From the NCBI GenBank assembly GCA_951406725.2, contig OX597829.1, forward strand, positions 45,322,001 through 45,386,000: a DNA stretch of 64,000 nt, written 5' to 3'. This document shows, piece after piece, positions 2,131 to 60,837 of this stretch (the stretch's first letter is position 1; every line of letters starts with the position of its first letter). Source of the DNA: Octopus vulgaris (taxonomy: Eukaryota). A model generated the notes under the pieces. The model made no database searches, had not been told where the DNA came from, and saw nothing but the letters and a program-made list of their open reading frames with translations. The position numbers and the translations under genes were made by a program.

Positions 2131-3273
2131 TTAGTTAGTTAATTTGGAGTTAAGTACAGGGTGGTGTTCATATAAAGAGTTCAGGCCACTTGAGGTCCAG
2201 GGAGGCTTTGAACAAAGCGGTCGTCGGCATCTTCACCATCTCGTCTGACAGCTTGTTCCACGGATCCGCAACCCGGACGGAGAAAGCTCCTCTCCTTCGA
2301 TTGAGATGAAATCGTCGCAGGTAGAGCTTTTCAGAATGACCCCGCAGCCGACGCTCCGGAGCAGGAGTGAAGAACAGCTCTTTCGAGAGGTTACACTTTC
2401 CGCTTATGATGCTGTGAGCAAGAATGAGATCACCACGGCGGCGGCGTTTTTCAAGAGAATAAAGGTCGAGCGTCCTCAGCCTTTCTTCGTAGGACAAATT
2501 TTTGAGACCATGAACCATGCGGGTAGCCAGCTTCTGGACTCTTTCGAGATGCTGTATGTCTTTGAGGAGATAAGGAGAAGAGGCTTGAATCCCATACTCC
2601 AATATGGGTCTCACCAGCGTGACATAGAGTGGCAGGAATATGGCAGCTGTGAGCATTCCGAATGACCGTCGAATCAAAAACAGAATTCCGCGCGCTTTGT
2701 TGGCAGCATGGACGCACTGGGCCGAAGGCGAAAAGGAGGAATCCACCAAGATACCCAGGTCCTTTACCTGATCGGTCCTCTCCAGCAGCAGACGACCCAG
2801 CTCGAAAGTTGAGTTGCAGGAGTAGAGCCGACAGGCAGATGACAGCACTTTGACACGTTCAGACACAGGTCCCAATCGTTAGACCACTTCCAAATTTGGT
2901 GGAGGCATCGACGAAGATCCTCTATACTACCGCGAGGAGCGACCAGTTTGATATCGTCGGCAAATAGAAGGGTGTGTTGCGTGAGGTCGTCGGGCAAGTC
3001 ATTTATGAAGACTAAGAACAACAAGGGCCCAAGCACTGAACCTTGAGGCACGCCACTGCTCGCACTGGAGACGTCGGACCGCGAACCATTAACTTGAACT
3101 TGGAAGGAGCGATCTGAGAGGAAGGCACCAACCCATCGTACAATATCCGGATGGAAACTATATGCTTGAAGCTTGACAAGTAGTAGGCGGTGGTTTACCG
3201 AGTCAAAAGCTTTGGCAAAGTCCAATAAAACGATGTCAACAGCATCACTATCATCGAGGATGCGCGTCACCAA
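2131..3273 (-). mobile_element. 5'-truncated CR1-clade LINE (RT and C-terminus), one frameshift near 2810-2830
   Basis: LDFAKAFDSV, GVPQGSVLGPLLF, FADD motifs; stop at 2168; (AACT)n tail. Confidence 0.9.
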
Positions 3274-3739
3274 TATAGGTTATGTCCAAATATATAAGAA
3301 GTAGACAAAGAAAATTAATTATCAAAATTAATATCAACAATTACTATTCTGAATCATATATATATATATATATATCATCATCATCATCATCATTTAGCGT
3401 CCGCTTTCCATGCTAGCATGGGTTGGACGGTTCAACTGGGGTCTGTGAAGCCGGAAGGCTGCATCAGGCCCAGTCTGATCTGGCAGTGTTTCTACAGCTG
3501 GATATATATATATATATAGGTTTATGTCCAAATCATAAGAAGTAGACAAAGAAAATTCTTTAACTCATCTTTAATGATTTGTTACAGTTGTTTCAGTACC
3601 AACTCTATTTGCATTGCTAGTTTACACAAAAATTTGAAGTGAAAATATACATCCTCAATTTACATGCTATCAGGACCTTAGAACTTTGCTCGCTCTATCT
3701 TTCTCTAACTATATATATATATATATATATATACATATA

Positions 3740-4120: not shown

Positions 4121-5267
4121 TGCCTATACATACACACACACGTATGTATTTATGTATATATATATATATATATATATATAAAGTTACATAGCCTAATGGT
4201 TAACGTGTTGCACTCACGATCAAGTGGGCTCCCTGACTGGGTGGCGCTTTGTTTTCTTGAGCAAAACATTTCATTTCAAGTTGCTCCAGTCTACCTTTAG
4301 ATTAGTGGGGAATGTTGGCCAGAGTAGAACATTGCAAAGCGCATTGTGAGTGATGATGTGTAACAACATCTAATCGCCTGATTGTATATATAGTTGGCTT
4401 GCTACTTATATATATATACACACACACACATTTTTTTCAGTCTGCAGAGATATGGTTAAAATTTTCCCTGTTTATAATTACACCATATGTTTTATCTTTA
4501 TATATATAAAACTGAGAATGTCTGTCTGTCTGTCTGTGTGTTTCCCTAAAACTTGAGAACTACACAACCAATTTCATTCAAATTTTACACATGCCTTACT
4601 TAGGGTCCATGTAGTTTCATGGGCAAAAAAAAATGTTCAACTTCTTGCCTAGAGCGAGCCCATAGCAATATCATATCTTCTCCACTATTTCAGTATTACA
4701 TGTTAAAAGTGAAACAAAAGCATTTCTCTATTTTATGTCAGATGCTTTCACTTTAACAATAAAAATAATAATAACAATTGAATTATATGTAGTAAGTAAT
4801 AATTAAAATCAAACTAAAGTATAATATAATCGTAACATAACAAAAGTAAAAATAGCAATTGGTATAAAATTGCATCAATGATTTGAACTTGAATAAGTAG
4901 TTTCACATGAATGGGAATAAATTAAAAATAAAATTAGTGTGCAGAAATGGAATAGTCCAGATGGAAAATAAAAAATTAAATTAAAGAAAAGACTATTGTC
5001 TATAAAGTATACAATGTAGAGAAAAAAAGATTTGAACACATGGAGGAAATCAATTTATTGCGTTATTAGTAAGTTGATATATATTTTTGCTCTCATACTA
5101 CTTATCTCTGTTATTATATACTGTTGGTCTACCTTTTTTTGTCCATTGTTGTCTAACGGACGAAGTCAACCATCGCGCGAAGACTTCGCGTTGGTGTTCC
5201 CCCCTCAGTGGGGGAAAACTACAATCAATTTAGATTACCAAAGGCTTGTTAAAGCCATTTGTTCAAA

Positions 5268-6644
5268 ATGGAGTCCCCCATCACTTATTCGCCCGTGACG
5301 AGCGAGGATGAATACCCGGCGTTGTCGCCAAGTAAAAAAGAGGCGTTGTCGCCAAGAAAAAAGAGGCGCTGTCGCCGAAGAAAAAAGAGGCGGCGTCGCC
5401 CAAGAAAATGGTAAAACCAGTACCAGCATCAACTCCAGCAAAAAAATTCGCTGAAGTGGCTGGGAAGAAAATTAAAAAAATTAACGTGGACAACCTGGGA
5501 AAACATGCAGACTGTGTGTCAAAAGAGGGCACGGAAGTAACCGTGGCTTCAAACGCCAAAATACAGGAGGATATTTCGAATAGGAGAATAATCTATAAGA
5601 CATTCAGTATAACAAACAGAGCAATCCAAAAAATAGAGGAGAAAAAGATTGAAAACTGCTTAAAGCCAATAATGGATAAAATTACGTATATCAATCGAGG
5701 GAAGAAATACGGCACAGTGGAGGTGAGATTCACGTCAGAGGAGGTAGCGAAGAAGCTATCCATGGAACCCATAAAAGCGGAGGATATTGTTCTCCTACCC
5801 CTGTATAAAGGCAAGAGAACTTCCAAAATCACTATGAACAACATCCCGCCAGAAGCGGATGCCGAAGTCCTAGTGGCAGCAGTTATGGTAGGCCTGGAGG
5901 AAAAAATAAACATCCTCCAGGCCACCGTAGAAGAAGAAGAATTCTGGAAAGGGCAAAAGATAATAATAGCCATACAAGCAGAAGTACAAACCCTGGAAGA
6001 GATCCCAGAGACTCTTAGGATAAGCGAAGATGAAAGAGTCACAGTCTTCGTAGAGGGCAGAAAGCCGAGGTGCTTCGGCTGCGGTAAGAAGGGGCATGTA
6101 AGGGCGGAATGCCAGCCCCAACCCAAACCGCAGGAAGCACCTAAGCCAAAAGGAAAAGAAGACAATGTGTCACCAGAAGCAGCGTCAGACGGCCCAGATG
6201 GGAAGACTGAAGGTGTGGAGGTGATGGTAACAGCAGAACCAGCGGCGGAGAAAAAAAGAGCGAAGAAAAGATAAATGAGGAGGGGTGGGCAAAAATTATC
6301 GGAAAAAAAAAAAGAAAAACGGAAACCACCCCTCCCAGAGTAATTTTAAAAAGAAAAAAGAGTCAATGAACTCATATATGGCCGTAAAAGCATCAAATAG
6401 CAGACTCGGAAACGTGTTGGCAGCCATGGCCAATGTGAAGAGAGTAGAGAAAAAAAATGACTTTGCAATTTACAAAATAGACCGGAAGGATTACGGGCGG
6501 ATAAAGTCAGAATTCTTCCATGACGTAGGCCCACTTAGGTTGGATGTAACATCTCCACATATATTCGAGGGCCTACGTCAGACTCCCCCACGAGGCCCAG
6601 AAAAAGAGAAGGAAGAAGAAGAAAAAACCGAACCACTGATATAA
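5268..6644 (+). pseudogene. Tx1 ORF1 (gag-like, CX2CX4HX4C), frameshifts in A-runs
   Basis: ATG 5268; CFGCGKKGHVRAEC; frame breaks at homopolymers near 5360 and 6255-6320, which may be assembly errors. Confidence 0.8.
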
Positions 6645-6653
6645 AGGTAAGTA

Positions 6654-9600
6654 ATGGATTACATTTATGTTGGTTGTTTAAATGTGCGCGGCCTGGGAGC
6701 AGGCTGGAAGCAAGGTCGCTTCCTGCATGATATCAGGTCGCGTAATTTAGATGTTATTGTTGCTACAGAAACCCGGCTAGAGGGGCCAAGAGGTCTACTC
6801 CCGCTGTTTGACGGCTACGAGAGTTTTTTCTCTCCTGGCAGTCCTACAGGCGGGAGTGGGGTGTTGGTCCTATTAAAAAGAAACCGGGTTTCTGAGAAAA
6901 AGTTAATTTTTGCAGATCCAGAAGGTAGGCTGGTCGTCATGGATTTGACGTTCAGTAATGGTAAAGTTATCAGACTGGTTGCAATTTACGCACCCAACCA
7001 TACAGGGCAAAGTGATTATTTTCGTGAACTAGAAAACTTTCTTGGTACTTCGCATTCATTAGTGGTGCTAGGAGACTTTAACACAATTTGCAAAGCGGAT
7101 GTAGATTATGTTGGCTCGTGTCCAGATAGAAAAGGCAACAGTGGCTTCATGGAACTGCTAAGCCGCTTTGAGCTAGCAGATCCTTATAGGCTGGAATTTC
7201 CGAACGCTCCATTGTGGACATGGTCAAACAGCGACGGATCTTCCAGGTCGTATCTAGATAGAATACTAATTAGAAAAGTAGACAGTAAAATAGCTAAGTG
7301 TCCACAGTTTTACCCGATCAGCTACAGTGATCATAAAATGGTCACTTGTAAGCTTGACATAGATAAGGTTAAAAATAGAGGATCCGGTTACTGGAAACTT
7401 AATACGTCCCTTTTGGCGATTAAGGAGTACAAAGACCGGATTAGGAATATAATTCAGAGGGCACTATCTGGTACCATCATTAATAACAAATGGTGGTACA
7501 CCCTCAAACGAGCCATCAAGTTTGAGTCTATTAGATATAGCATAGGAGTAGTGGCTAGAGAGGCTAGAAGGGAAACTACTCTAGTTAAGGAATTAGAGGA
7601 AGCCATGAAAACTGGCTCTGCGGCTCAGGTGGCGGCCAAGAGACTGGTGTTAAACCAGCACCTCGAGGCCAAACACATGGGCTGCATTGTCAGGGCTAGA
7701 ATCCGTCATATGGGATGTGAAGGAATCAACGCCGTGAGATGGGCCCGAGTGGTGGAAGCTCAGCATGGTAACGATGCCACGATTCGATCTTTGACGAACC
7801 AACAAGGTGAGTTGATAAACGAACCCGAGGAGATGTGTGAGGCCTTTCAGGAGCACTTCGCTCAGCTTTTCGGTGAGTGCGGCGGACTGGATAGGGAGGA
7901 GGGCCTTTACGGACCTACTCGACGGTCTGCCGCGCTTATCGGGGCGAGATGCGGAGGGCTGTGAAGGGCCAATCACGCCTGAGGAGGTGGTTGAGGCAAT
8001 GGCGGACTGCGGCGCGGGCAAGGCGCCGGGTTTGGATGGTCTACCCTATGAGTTATATAAGAGTATGCCAGACTTGTTCGGGCACCTACTGGCGGAGGTC
8101 TACGCGAACTGGCAGCAGAACGGGCTTATACCCAGATCTGTGCGCCGGGGAGTAGTGACTCTCGTCAGAAAGGACCCGAGCAAGGGGGAGTGCATTGATA
8201 ATTTCAGGCCCATCACTCTGCTAAACACAGAGTTGAAGATTTTGGCCAAAGTGTTATCGAAAAGATTGGCGCGTGTCGCGGATGGTCTGATCGGAGGGGC
8301 ACAGACATGTGCCGTTCCGGGCAGATCCATTCAGGATAATCTCCATCTAATGCGGTACACTATAGAGGGGTTTAATAGTGATTCTGGCAAGGGTGGGGCA
8401 CTGGTCCATTTAGACCAATCTAAAGCTTTTGATAGGGTCGACCATCGTTACCTGGTATCTGCCCTGGCACAGTTCGGGCTGAGCCTTGGATTCCTCAGGT
8501 GGATTATCGAAATTTATGATAACATCGACTCGGTAGTTCGGGTGAACGGCTTCTTGTCGAAGCCGTTCAAAATCAAACGCTCGGTTCGTCAAGGGTGTCC
8601 GCTCTCCCCGCTTTTGTACGTGATGGCTCTTGAGCCATTACTGCGAAAACTGAGCGGCATCCCGAGACAGCCAGGTAATGGAAAATCAGTGTCAGCGTAC
8701 GCGGATGACATCACCATCATCGTAACCGAAATGGACCACCTATGTAAAGTAGGCAAGGCCATAGAGGTGTACGAGACGGTGACAGGAGCAAAAGTTAATC
8801 GCGAAAAGTCAGTCGGCTTGCAACTCGGCACCTGGAGAGGCAAGTCGATGCCTCTGACAGCGTCGTGGGACGTTGGACGGAGGGTCCGATTAAACTGCTA
8901 GGGGTCTGGTTCGGTCCAGACCTCCAAATAGAGAAGAATTGGGGCGAGGTAACGAGCAAGGTGGCTGCAGTAGCCAAGACCTGGTCTTGGCGGTGGCTAT
9001 CCCTGAAAGGGAGGGCGGAGGTGGCCAATGTGTTTATCGCATCGGTTATCACCTACCGCCTTTCCGTCGTTCCTTGCCCTGATTCGTGGTTGATCAAGTT
9101 GGAAAGACAGCTCTTCTACTTCTTGTGGAAGGGCGGGAAACCACTTGTGAAACGCTCTACTTGCTGTCAACAACCGTTAAAGGGTGGGCTAGGGATGCCT
9201 TGGCTGATGATGCGCAGACATGCGCTGAGGTTAAGACATCTGTGGCTCTACCTGGATGGTGAACGGGTGTGGTCTTCGCTAGCAAAACTGATGTTTCCCA
9301 AGTTCACTAGTTTCGGTGGATGGGAAACCTGGCTGAATCGTAGATCGAAACTTGGTACTTGGTACACGGAGTGTCGCAAGGCTCTCCTGCTATTCCGTCG
9401 CTCGGGCAACGCCTGCGGTGGGGGTTCCACCACTTTCTTCTATAGAGGGTTGGTAGAGGCGGAATGTGAAGATACCTTGGGGGAAACCCTAGGTCTCGAC
9501 GATAATCAGCTGGCCAGTCTGTTCCGACGTACGTTCGAGCCAAGGACACTGGACAACTTCCAGAAGTCTCTGGCATGGCAATGCTACAGAGGAGCTCTAC

Positions 9601-10049
9601 CTGTTCGGGATAAACTCGCAAGGCACGGTGGCCAAGACAGTCCGATATGTCCAAGATGCGGGCGGGATAGGGAAACCGTCCCGCACGCGATTGTTCATTG
9701 TCCGGACGTGTCTGAGGTGTGGGTTTATGCCGAACACCTGTTGTCAGGTACACGAAGAGTACAGCTGTCGACTGAGTCGATTACAAAAATTGACCCACCG
9801 GATTTCCTCGTGAATGAAGGTAAGTTTCGTTTTCTCGTTGTAGTAGCAATCGCGAAAGAGGTGATATGGAAGACGAGAATGAAAGGTTTACAGTCAGGCA
9901 AGTTCATCTCCGGCCCTGGTTTGATGAATTATTTCATCTTTCACCTGAAAAGGAAGATAGGGCTGGAGAGAATATGCCTGACTAGGAGAGCGTATGAAGA
10001 ACGATGGAAGGATGTAGCACGGAAGTTGCGAATGAAAGTTACAACATAA
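6654..10049 (+). pseudogene. Tx1 ORF2 endonuclease/reverse transcriptase with two frameshifts (about 7900 and 8850)
   Basis: LNVRGL, GDFN, SYLDR, SDH (APE); APGLDGLP, FRPITLLN, VRQGCPLSPLLY, AYADD (RT); CPRC..E...H...C. Confidence 0.92.
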
Positions 10050-10778
10050 ATGTAATACCAAGTGCAACCAAAAGTATCAGTGGGGAGGCGGGGCTCGTGG
10101 GGTCCGAGCTAAACCCGCACCCACTCCACCCGTAATGTCTTCCGGTCTGTCCTATCACTCGATTTTTGTCCATTTATTGTTATTCATGAAAATTTTTAAA
10201 CCCGATTTATTGTAAAAACCCATTCGTTTGTCTGACCCCATCATCAGAATGTATTGTCCCATCTGTGTTCGCCCCTTGTGGGTAATAATAAAACAACATG
10301 GAGGAAAGCACCTTTGAAAAGTGTCTTGGTGCGACAATGAAAGATATCTAATCAGAGGTGGTAAATTCGCCAGAATAGAAGCAAGGTTCGAGTCAACGGA
10401 GCACTCAACTCGAACTTGCAAAGTGGAAATATTTTATTTTTACCTTTATATCTGGGACGTAGGACGTCCCGGAAAAAAAATTTTAAATGCCCCCCCCCCA
10501 CCAGAAGTAGAGGTAGGCTGGATTGTAGCCACACTTCTATACAAAAGGGAGGACAAGATACAATTGATTGAAATTACAAGAGACAGGCTAACAATTCCAG
10601 TCTGTTATATATTTTGAGTATTGTTATCACTAGTGATATCAAGATATAACTTTGTATTTTGCATTTTATGTGTAGATGTATATATATATAGATGTACATG
10701 TAATATGTACACATATATATAAATACATATATACATGCCCTAGCACTATGACCCGGCAACGATGGGTCTTTAATGCTA

Positions 10779-10821
<43 letters not shown>

Positions 10822-10868: not shown

Positions 10869-56974
<46,106 letters not shown>

Positions 56975-59062: not shown

Positions 59063-59496
59063 AGTGAAATGAAATTCAGATGCTATGTTACAGTAATGCA
59101 AGGAGAAAAGGTATCATATAGAAGAATAGCTTAACCCTTTTGTTACTGTATTTATTTTGAGATGCTCTGTGTTTCTTTCAATTATTTTAAATATGACAAA
59201 GAATTTAGTAAAATAACTTAGTTATCATTCAGATAGTGTTTGGAACATAAATTGTGACTAAGGGTTGGTGGAATATTTTAATTCAGAACTTATGAAAACA
59301 AAACATTTATACTACAGAGCCAGTTTTGGCCGGGTTGGTAACAAAAGTGTTAAAGGAATGAGAAATGTTTTTGATACGGAATATCAGTAAGTTGTAGTGA
59401 AATGAATTTACAAATGCTGAATGGTGTCAGTGTTTTTGATGAAATTCTGACACTATATTACAGGAATGCAGGGCAAGGGGTTGTGTGGTTGCCTTT

Positions 59497-59728
59497 AGGC
59501 GGCGAGCTAGCAGAAACGTTAGCACGCCGGGCGAAATGCTTAGCAGTGTTTCGTCTGCCGTTACGTTCTGAGTTCAAATTTCGCCGAGGTCGACTTTGCC
59601 TTTCATCCTTTCGGGGTCGAATAAATAAGTACCAGTTACGCACTGGGGTCGATATAATCGACTTACTCCGTGTGTCTGTCCTTGTTTGTCCTCTCTGTGT
59701 TTAGCCCCTTGTGGGTAGTAAAGAAATA
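59497..59728 (+). mobile_element. Meta-domain-like SINE with Tx1-like 3' tail
   Basis: B-box GAGTTCAAAT; GCCTTTCATCCTTTCGGGGTCGA..AAGTACCAG core; TSD GGTTGCCTTT. Confidence 0.85.
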
Positions 59729-60837
59729 GGTTGCCTTTCTGTTGGTGTGTCAATGATTTGCATTTGGCTGTGAATTTGTGTCTGTGTCTGTGTACAGCTT
59801 CACTGTCAGATTATCTCTGTCTATGTGAAAGAAATTTGTATATTTATATCTTTGTGCTCTTGCTAGATTCTACAATCCAGAAGGCACCTGAACTTGTTTA
59901 AGTCTACTTGTATCATGTACAAGTTTTTTTTTGTTTTTTTTTCCTCTATGAAATGTTAAGTATTAAATATTAAAAACTTTCTGCTTTTAACACTTTACCA
60001 AAATTATTCTGTGAAATGTAATGTTTATTCATCCACATTGTTTCAAATTAATCGGACATTATCTCATAGCCTCAAGATTTTGTTGTGATTTTACTTATTT
60101 TTAGAATGAGATTGTAGGGTAGGTGTGAGAGTCTGGATCAAGCTGGTTTGAGCATAGACTAAGTAGAACATTTGGGCCTGATGTGGCTATTTTAAATGCT
60201 AAGTATGAGATTTTTTAGTCAAGAGGGAAAACTTGTGGAAACCTGGGCAGAATGCTTGCAACAAAGTAGACTCAATTAAAAGCAGCGAAGGTGCCAGGTA
60301 GTGGCAAATGATCAATTCCCTTATCCAAGTGGGTCATGGCAAGATTTGAGCTCAGACTGCAAAGATCCTGAATAAATACCACCAAGAATCTAGTCCAACA
60401 TGCTTCTGGTTTGGTATGTTTTTATCAACTCTAAAAGGATCACAAAATATACACATGCATGCACACACACATACACACTAGGTAAGCAAATCTGTGCAGA
60501 CTTTGGCCTTTTTTGTATGAATATGTGTAAAATATATATTTGTAGATATGTATATATATTATATATTTAAAATTACCATAAACTTTTTTTTAAATGAGTT
60601 GCTATATAAAATACTGAAATATTTTCATTTTGTTGTTTGTACAGTTTGAGAATTTTCAGGTATGTTTTTTGTACCCTTGTCTCAAAATACCCCAATTGAA
60701 AGTATCAATATAATTAGGACACACACCCGGCAATGCGCTGGGTCCTTTACATGCACAACCATAGCATGTATGGATTGGCATTGGGCCTCTAGAACTATGA
60801 GGACTTTGGGCAGTTGCCTAGCATACTGATCCCTGCA

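Follow-up and report, generated by a model that had tools for sequence, protein, structure and literature searches.

A 64,000-nucleotide stretch of the Octopus vulgaris genome (contig OX597829.1, positions 45,322,001 to 45,386,000 of the forward strand; termed the window and numbered from its first letter) contains a Tx1-type retrotransposon that lacks long terminal repeats (non-LTR), lying inside the dead first open reading frame (ORF1) of another Tx1 element, which in turn lies inside a non-autonomous Helitron-like element. This nested anatomy was confirmed by direct observation. The explanation favoured here, with a probability that we put at about 0.68, is an ordinary one-off nesting in which a recently active Tx1 element landed, with little or weak site preference, in a decaying non-autonomous Helitron carrying an old and distant Tx1 scrap. 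A single event is preferred because the flanks of a sister clade are unrelated, a short interspersed nuclear element (SINE) with a similar tail sits in unrelated DNA, and the target codons are variable.

The insert (5050–10295, plus strand, 5,246 bp) is bounded by an exact target-site duplication (TSD) of 12 bp, ACATGGAGGAAA, at 5038–5049 on the left and 10296–10307 on the right (both plus strand), which occurs nowhere else in the window. With random placements, the chance of a 12-bp repeat around a 5.25-kb stretch was approximately 0.03%, and the TSD could be up to 16 bp long if two differences beside the 3′ junction are tolerated, as in relatives. In silico removal of 5038–10295 gave a sequence colinear with a second Helitron-like copy at 33946–35503, in which the corresponding empty site (35025–35036, plus strand) carries the variant ACCTGGAGGAAA, found only there and identical to the TSD at 11 of 12 bases. 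Comparison of the first Helitron copy, with the insert excised, to the second copy revealed 55 substitutions in 976 aligned columns (38 transitions and 17 transversions) together with 13 insertion or deletion events, a Kimura two-parameter distance of 0.059. The ORF1 remnant within the Helitron lies on the same strand as the insert and spans the insertion site. An initial annotation of this DNA, made from the letters alone, had placed both the filled and the empty site in the window and had called the insert a Tx1 nested in a Helitron on the strand of the ORF1 remnant; both statements hold.

The insert looks full length, having a TSD and complete 5′ and 3′ ends. As in full-length relatives, there is a GTAAG near its 5′ end and the leader has a C/G hairpin, and its 3′ end carries a stem-loop with a CTTGT loop (10271–10283, plus strand), common to relatives and the SINE, followed by AATAAA. 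Covariation is seen in the stem-loop, with both sides changing in two of four pairs and 97.5% of cells paired over 10 rows, in an alignment whose register was the analyst's choice. ORF1 (5268–6644, plus strand), delimited by tblastn with the intact Octopus sinensis ORF1 P0005, has three frameshifts and no in-frame stop. It encodes a Cx2Cx4Hx4C zinc knuckle, CFGCGKKGHVRAEC, for which the Pfam score alone is below the cut-off (E 0.045); a CCHC knuckle in ORF1 is a feature of the Tx1 clade. ORF2 (6654–10049, plus strand) likewise has no in-frame stop and encodes an apurinic/apyrimidinic endonuclease (APE), a reverse transcriptase (RT) and a zf-RVT domain (PF03372, PF00078 and PF13966; E 3e-14, 6e-31 and 2e-9, all above cut-off), with the catalytic motifs present and two frameshifts near 7903 and 8851. 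APE, RT and a C-terminal zinc finger in ORF2 together mark the Tx1 clade of the L1 group. The five frameshifts across ORF1 and ORF2, each of which could stem from a single-base change within or next to a run of bases, may be long-read errors or real.

Five of seven ORF1 matches are named Octopus sinensis or O. vulgaris, with up to 93% identity, while the nearest named RT is from Argonauta (63% identity). In a quick RT tree, which holds no L1 or named Tx1 reference, the insert groups with elements inserted in U1 and 5S genes, near a protein auto-named TX1; it scores 268 bits against that full-length protein and 126 bits against human L1 ORF2. In type the insert resembles the L1-Tx1 families reported for O. 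vulgaris (PMC13282606). Apart from the SINE tail, searches with the 3′ end, the 5′ end and the ORFs yielded no further insert copies in the window, and the exact 3′-end pattern had no match in genome_contigs, where no eukaryotic genome collection was included. One database protein, P0010, fuses the N-terminal half of ORF1 (window 5558–6004) to an off-frame piece of late ORF2 (8999–9145), which suggests internally deleted derivatives of the insert's lineage.

The relative ages of insert and host were estimated from decay. No in-frame stop was found in 1,579 codons of the insert, counted on segments ending at the frameshifts so that a stop right at a break could escape, where the exact expectation under the mutation spectrum of the Helitron pair is 161 stops per unit divergence. 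The decay of the insert is therefore below 1.9% (95%), and the 2.8% per lineage of the Helitron pair has P 0.011 for it. The borrowed rate of 0.0036 per site per million years (PMC13282606) gives an age of about 8 million years for the split of the Helitron copies and of less than about 5 million years for the insert.

The first Helitron-like copy (4495–10779, plus strand), 1,027 bp long before it was interrupted, begins with A^TC at 4495 and ends with a hairpin and CTAG^T at 10779. The second (33946–35503, plus strand) is empty and colinear with the first; it is missing the first 30 bp and retains only the 3′ end, with its hairpin at 35465–35503. A 226-bp (TC)n run at 33718–33943 adjoins it where those 30 bp are missing. 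Canonical Helitrons have a 5′ TC, a 3′ CTRR, a subterminal palindrome and an A^T insertion site without TSD (PMC4067079). The host shares the 5′ TC, CTRR-type end and palindrome, and may share the A^T site, with canonical non-autonomous Helitrons that carry captured fragments, but differs in that its palindrome reaches the very end and that no autonomous partner was seen in the window. The first copy is flanked by A and T, as insertion at the canonical site would leave it. Helentrons and DINE-1 elements are marked by subterminal inverted repeats and insertion into TT. This identity was ruled out, as no terminal inverted pair of the second copy was present among the 25 longest of 43 shown and the first copy lies between A and T. 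Non-autonomous Helitrons require RepHel in trans for movement; no RepHel coding sequence was found in the window and no RepHel domain among 15 window translations scanned.

The terminal hairpin of the second copy is near perfect (−15.9 kcal/mol, z −7.0), whereas that of the first (10740–10779 with CTAG, plus strand, by folding) is weakened (−8.0 kcal/mol, z −2.8) by two substitutions and one extra base, all on its 3′ arm and private to this copy. Self-complementarity of the stem allows these lesions to be assigned to the first copy. At 1.9% decay, the maximum age of the insert, three lesions in the terminator have P 0.04; the terminator was probably damaged before the young insert arrived, in a host that was already decaying. 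The initial annotation had described the Helitron ends as intact, which holds for A^TC and CTAG^T of the first copy but not for its terminator, nor for the second copy with its missing start. It had also suggested that the 6.3-kb composite might move as a unit, which would call for a Helitron transposase acting in trans. The 5′ TC and 3′ CTAG do remain, the inner six hairpin pairs still fold, and two or more sites received the older Tx1 scrap through this Helitron family. However, given the private terminator lesions, an insert much younger than the Helitron pair, and only one filled copy and no second composite in the window, such movement, a question separate from targeting, is very unlikely.

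The dead ORF1 remnant was recognised by profile on both sides of the insert, at 4966–5049 (plus strand, E 1.6e-7; ending with the left TSD and matching 34949–35036) and at 10296–10588 (plus strand, E 1.5e-14). In the second Helitron copy it covers 34801–35322 (plus strand) and comprises the N-terminal ~170 codons, with no knuckle, ORF2 or Tx1 3′ end. Both Helitron copies share its stop, frameshift and 3′ truncation, and so the remnant died once and then spread with the Helitron; the same features, with the lack of a Tx1 tail, ruled out that the two copies are independent short retro-elements with different 5′ truncations. The insert ORF1 is 27% identical to the remnant in the second copy (tblastn, E 7.5e-12), and the two lie on separate branches, each with SH-aLRT support of 99, in a quick ORF1 tree of 54 rows that included the 50 of 146 relatives spanning the region. 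A profile search returned 878 ORF1-like clusters at 50% identity, although some of the 150 listed are knuckle-only matches. Ten were looked up, and the seven that are named or labelled comprise six from Octopus and one uninformative, some being embedded in unrelated gene models. ORF1 debris is thus common, and the ‘relative’ into which the insert went is one of very many distant cousins. No predicted protein spanning the insertion junction was recognised among the ORF1 relatives, the best match to the remnant being 42% over 128 residues.

It could be that the remnant was not captured by the Helitron, as had been supposed, but came from an earlier Tx1 insertion into it followed by internal deletion, which would make two Tx1 events on one Helitron family. 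Capture is one possible origin; the older insertion fits equally well and is a tentative option that we rate a little short of even. The remnant lies on the same strand and includes 5′ untranslated region (UTR)-like sequence, there is a sharp composition switch at 34364–34394, and the Helitron has canonical-looking termini on both sides, no older terminator having been seen upstream of the remnant. On the other hand, neither a Tx1 3′ stem-loop or tail nor a second copy of a TSD was found in the remnant, and the GTAAG of its UTR is ~190 bp from the switch. In full-length elements the distance of GTAAG to the 5′ end or spacer is 19–104 bp, a contrast hinting that the remnant brought adjoining DNA with it, as capture would. 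The 5′ UTR and first ~50 codons were held in 556 bp (34393–34948, plus strand), T-rich in the UTR-like part, that have no counterpart in the first copy. Loss of this segment as a spliced intron was ruled out, its right end lacking AG.

The SINE that shares the 3′ tail of the insert lies at 59497–59728 (plus strand) between 10-bp duplications, GGTTGCCTTT, at 59487–59496 and 59729–59738. Its tail matches the insert 3′ end in 31 of 36 columns (E 2.4e-5). A duplication of this kind arose by chance in 165 of 27,403 placements (0.6%) outside a 247-bp tandem array in the window; with the array included the value was 0.08, inflated by the array. SINEs that share a tail with a long interspersed nuclear element (LINE) are taken to use the machinery of that LINE (PMC4824008), and judging from the tail this SINE was likely mobilised by the insert's lineage. 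Its flanks match the Tx1 target at only 9 of 30 and 7 of 30 positions, and no Helitron match beyond a 13-mer was seen there. The middle part of the SINE also matches window 28518–28598 at 77%.

An RT scan of genome_contigs returned 69 loci, of which 63 (L001–L060 and L063–L065) come from 16 contigs of record set CAXXMW01, filed as a bacterial metagenome-assembled genome (MAG) and presumably eukaryotic contamination. These contigs hold head-to-tail arrays of mostly intact, 6.4–6.9-kb Tx1-like elements, with neighbours 96–99.9% identical and up to 12 junctions on one contig. The array elements form a sister clade of the cephalopod branch (RT tree support 100), with 49–52% RT identity to the insert and a homologous ORF1 at 32%. 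They resemble the insert in the 3′ stem-loop and in ending with AATAAA without poly(A), and their duplications are 12–18 bp; they differ from it as tandem repeats with family-specific spacers, the window insert being a single copy. At the 65 distinct 3′ junctions every family reuses a 12–18-bp spacer of its own, and the nine spacer types agree with each other at a mean of 3.0 of 12 positions (maximum 6). At eight of the nine array loci compared, the endonucleases are 91–97% identical and have the same target-reading loop, bar one residue in L014, so that near-identical endonucleases go with unrelated junction sequences. Units truncated at the 5′ end also sit behind the family spacer (L033, L019/L020), which suggests repeated insertion at a rebuilt site, a route to tandems described for Drosophila (PMC5932611).

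The outer flanks of these arrays were then compared with the Helitron and with Tx1 proteins. None of the nine visible flanks (on seven contigs) matched ORF1 (best E 0.028), ORF2, the array proteins or the Helitron, while the window's own flanks were recovered by the same test. Matches from flank to flank consisted of microsatellites and of a repeat that stops short of the junctions.

These data bear on the proposal, raised in the initial annotation, that the Tx1 family is specific for a site in this Helitron family. The precedent it named, insertion of Tx1L into Tx1D in Xenopus laevis, is correct (PMC4494074, PMC1950540), and Tx1 families are known inside piggyBac, Mariner, Harbinger and LTR elements (PMC4494074, PMC1950540), the crocodilian Tx1-Mar, Tx1-9_AMi and Tx1-8_Crp/Tx1-4_AMi being examples within the last three kinds of host (PMC4494074). 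The window resembles the Xenopus case as a two-ORF Tx1 element with an APE endonuclease inside a non-autonomous DNA transposon; it differs in that Tx1D is a piggyBac element and its targeting was shown biochemically, whereas here there is one event in a Helitron-like host. The endonuclease loop of the insert aligns to human L1 without a gap, whereas that of Tx1L has 11 residues and a more extended tip (PMC4494074/PMC1950540). A family specific for this Helitron would thus parallel Tx1L with Tx1D and Tx1-Mar with Mariner-N4. In its favour, DNA transposons or LTR elements are the targets of several Tx1 groups (PMC4494074), the Helitron is present two times within 64 kb and may therefore be an abundant safe target, and the insert RT groups with the U1- and 5S-inserted elements. 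However, the tail-sharing SINE sits at an unrelated site, none of the nine sister-clade flanks lies in a Helitron or a Tx1, and the insert is a single copy without tandem re-insertion, facing an empty site that differs at one of 12 bases. In crocodilians the partner element SINEU mirrors the Tx1-Mar target and can serve as a read-out of it (PMC4494074), with 13–90% of SINEU copies flanked by the shared target (PMC4494074); the one tail-sharing SINE here does not mirror the insert's site. Tx1 families have been called target-specific when more than 20% of copies share the same flanking sequence (PMC4494074). The word Helitron does not appear in PMC4494074, and no paper on a Helitron-targeting Tx1 was found in a search with Repbase Reports and subscription journals largely outside its scope; PMC10294476, PMC8967140, PMC10088271 and PMC4758252 provided background only. 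Taken together, Helitron specificity is considered improbable.

The other proposed specificity, in which the insert seeks and disables the ORF1 of rival Tx1 families, was examined through conservation of the target codons. The insertion site corresponds to ORF1 profile positions 122–126, which rank 161 of 167 five-residue windows in conservation among 146 ORF1 relatives. The site is thus a poor handle for attacking rival ORF1s because its codons are among the least conserved, and the remnant was dead long before the insert came. The insert does lie on the same strand inside ORF1, its own homologous codons, as read off the sequence, differ from the target at 3 of 12 bases, and among the relatives there is a mild excess of protein fragments beginning within profile 118–125 (18 of 146). 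However, this excess also fits predicted start codons at V/I/M columns, and none of the sister-clade flanks is an ORF. A specificity for rival ORF1s is accordingly disfavoured, and an attack of this kind is the most improbable of the explanations considered.

Chance nesting was also put on a numerical footing. O. vulgaris has 1.02% Helitron and 2.0% L1-Tx1 sequence, and 80 L1-Tx1 families, 13 of them recently active with 421 insertions (PMC13282606). With no targeting assumed, these figures predict approximately 4.3 recent L1-Tx1 insertions in Helitrons and 4.2 in same-strand L1-Tx1 sequence per genome. The triple coincidence of Tx1, Helitron and ORF1 is rarer, although it had not been defined in advance. 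Repeats account for at least 55% of the window.

Several observations weigh against a one-off event. Of the window before insertion, same-strand ORF1 remnants occupy only 0.75% and the Helitron occupies 4.4%; no other copy of the insert's exact family was seen; the SINE tail is only 86% identical, and as a single copy the SINE may have been moved by another or a sister family. The two Helitron copies may also belong to different subfamilies, which would weaken the age argument. Sister-clade families return repeatedly to their own spacer, and 56 of 65 array junctions begin with G. Deeper relatives are target-specific: of the six loci outside the arrays, L062 (1814–8948) is a Tx1-like element in a U1 small nuclear RNA (snRNA) gene, with a repeat of ~163 bp, made up of U1 and its flank, on each side, and L067 (4422–4534) and L068 (2726–2844) are in 5S ribosomal RNA (rRNA) genes, all three in records filed as bacterial MAGs. 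These elements fall in the same RT group as the insert and are 35–41% identical to it, but they are deeper branches with RNA-gene targets, and no Rfam family reached the gathering score in the window. Around the second Helitron copy the Rfam search gave only TA-repeat noise, and it gave nothing for the SINE or for one array spacer.

Two further observations of this kind concern likenesses to the target. The best second target match inside the Helitron (34382–34401, plus strand, 14 of 20) lies at the deletion end, where the 556-bp segment has its left boundary and A-rich sequence switches to T-rich, and the site of the relative L047 agrees with the target in 16 of 20 columns (P 0.06 as the best of ten spacers). 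One interpretation is that the insert reads a short motif, approximately TGAAC..(T)GGAG..AAG, through its endonuclease or through RNA-end pairing, anywhere in the genome, and that the Helitron merely offered a match; the 556-bp deletion, too, might have resulted from cleavage at the second near-match. Recurrence of family-specific spacers within arrays, including before the 5′-truncated units, is in keeping with this. However, both likenesses were noticed post hoc. With correction for window choice, 17 of 128,006 positions scored as well as the second site, giving P 0.004 for one landmark, 0.05–0.08 for six to eight landmarks and 0.34 anywhere in the element, or 0.06–0.13 when only the TSD and upstream bases are used; for L047, adding three upstream bases post hoc gave 0 of 4,000. 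In addition, near-identical endonucleases have unrelated spacers, and the composition switch is another reason for the breakpoint. A motif of this kind is an unlikely explanation, although there are some signs that a weak sequence-motif preference exists. Bolder still, and something of a long shot, is the idea that this is the first Tx1 found homing to a Helitron, by way of a short motif spread with an older Tx1 ORF1, and that in the wider lineage an RNA-borne spacer rather than the endonuclease sets the site. Such a spacer would explain how sister families with near-identical endonucleases rebuild unrelated sites and grow head-to-tail arrays.

Under the one-off nesting that we favour, the 5′ end of an old Tx1 would first have become part of a short Helitron, either through capture or through an insertion that was later trimmed by deletion, and would have died there. 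The composite of Helitron and dead ORF1 would then have been copied as a Helitron, some 8 million years ago at the borrowed rate, after which the first copy would have lost 556 bp and suffered its terminator damage. Finally, a young Tx1 would have cut inside the remnant with a 12–16-bp stagger and inserted by target-primed reverse transcription. The order of these steps is our reconstruction, built around the observed nesting, duplication, empty site, domains and terminator damage. The locus is now probably an immobile landing pad, with the Tx1 alone capable of renewed movement, provided that its five frameshifts are assembly errors.

Divergence between the two Helitron copies is uneven, with 18 of 522 positions differing left of the insert (4525–5049) and 37 of 454 right of it (10308–10779; P 0.002), which may reflect either mosaic subfamilies or a more rapid decay of DNA richer in CpG. 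At 10869–10924, 33663–33696 and 36749–37654, putative exons bounded by AG/GT were noted on the plus strand, along with a 301-codon open frame, and both Helitron copies may lie in introns of one putative gene with the Tx1 in sense; its identity drew only weak Atlas leads (best score 0.84). Elsewhere, a second, unrelated LINE at 15501–18835 (minus strand) has a 949-codon endonuclease and RT frame that is CR1-like by inspection, and an RT fragment lies at 2168–3279 (minus strand). The tandem array at 47785–52989 comprises 21 copies of the 247-bp unit at ~99.7% identity, and the DNA after it has a 39-bp piece in common with 13257–13295. Region 12670–13249 contains a T30 run (13086–13115) flanked on both sides by a 125-bp duplication (98%), possibly a tandem retro-insertion on the minus strand.

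As a one-off, the nesting itself matters little, although it dates a still-young L1-Tx1 family in octopus. The shared tail gives a likely LINE partner for an octopus SINE, and the remnant illustrates a Helitron ferrying retrotransposon debris. Were the family specific for this Helitron after all, Helitrons would be added to the list of Tx1 targets. The sister-clade arrays are probably of more interest than the nested insertion, as near-identical endonucleases combined with unrelated, self-repeated sites would offer a direct test of what sets target choice.

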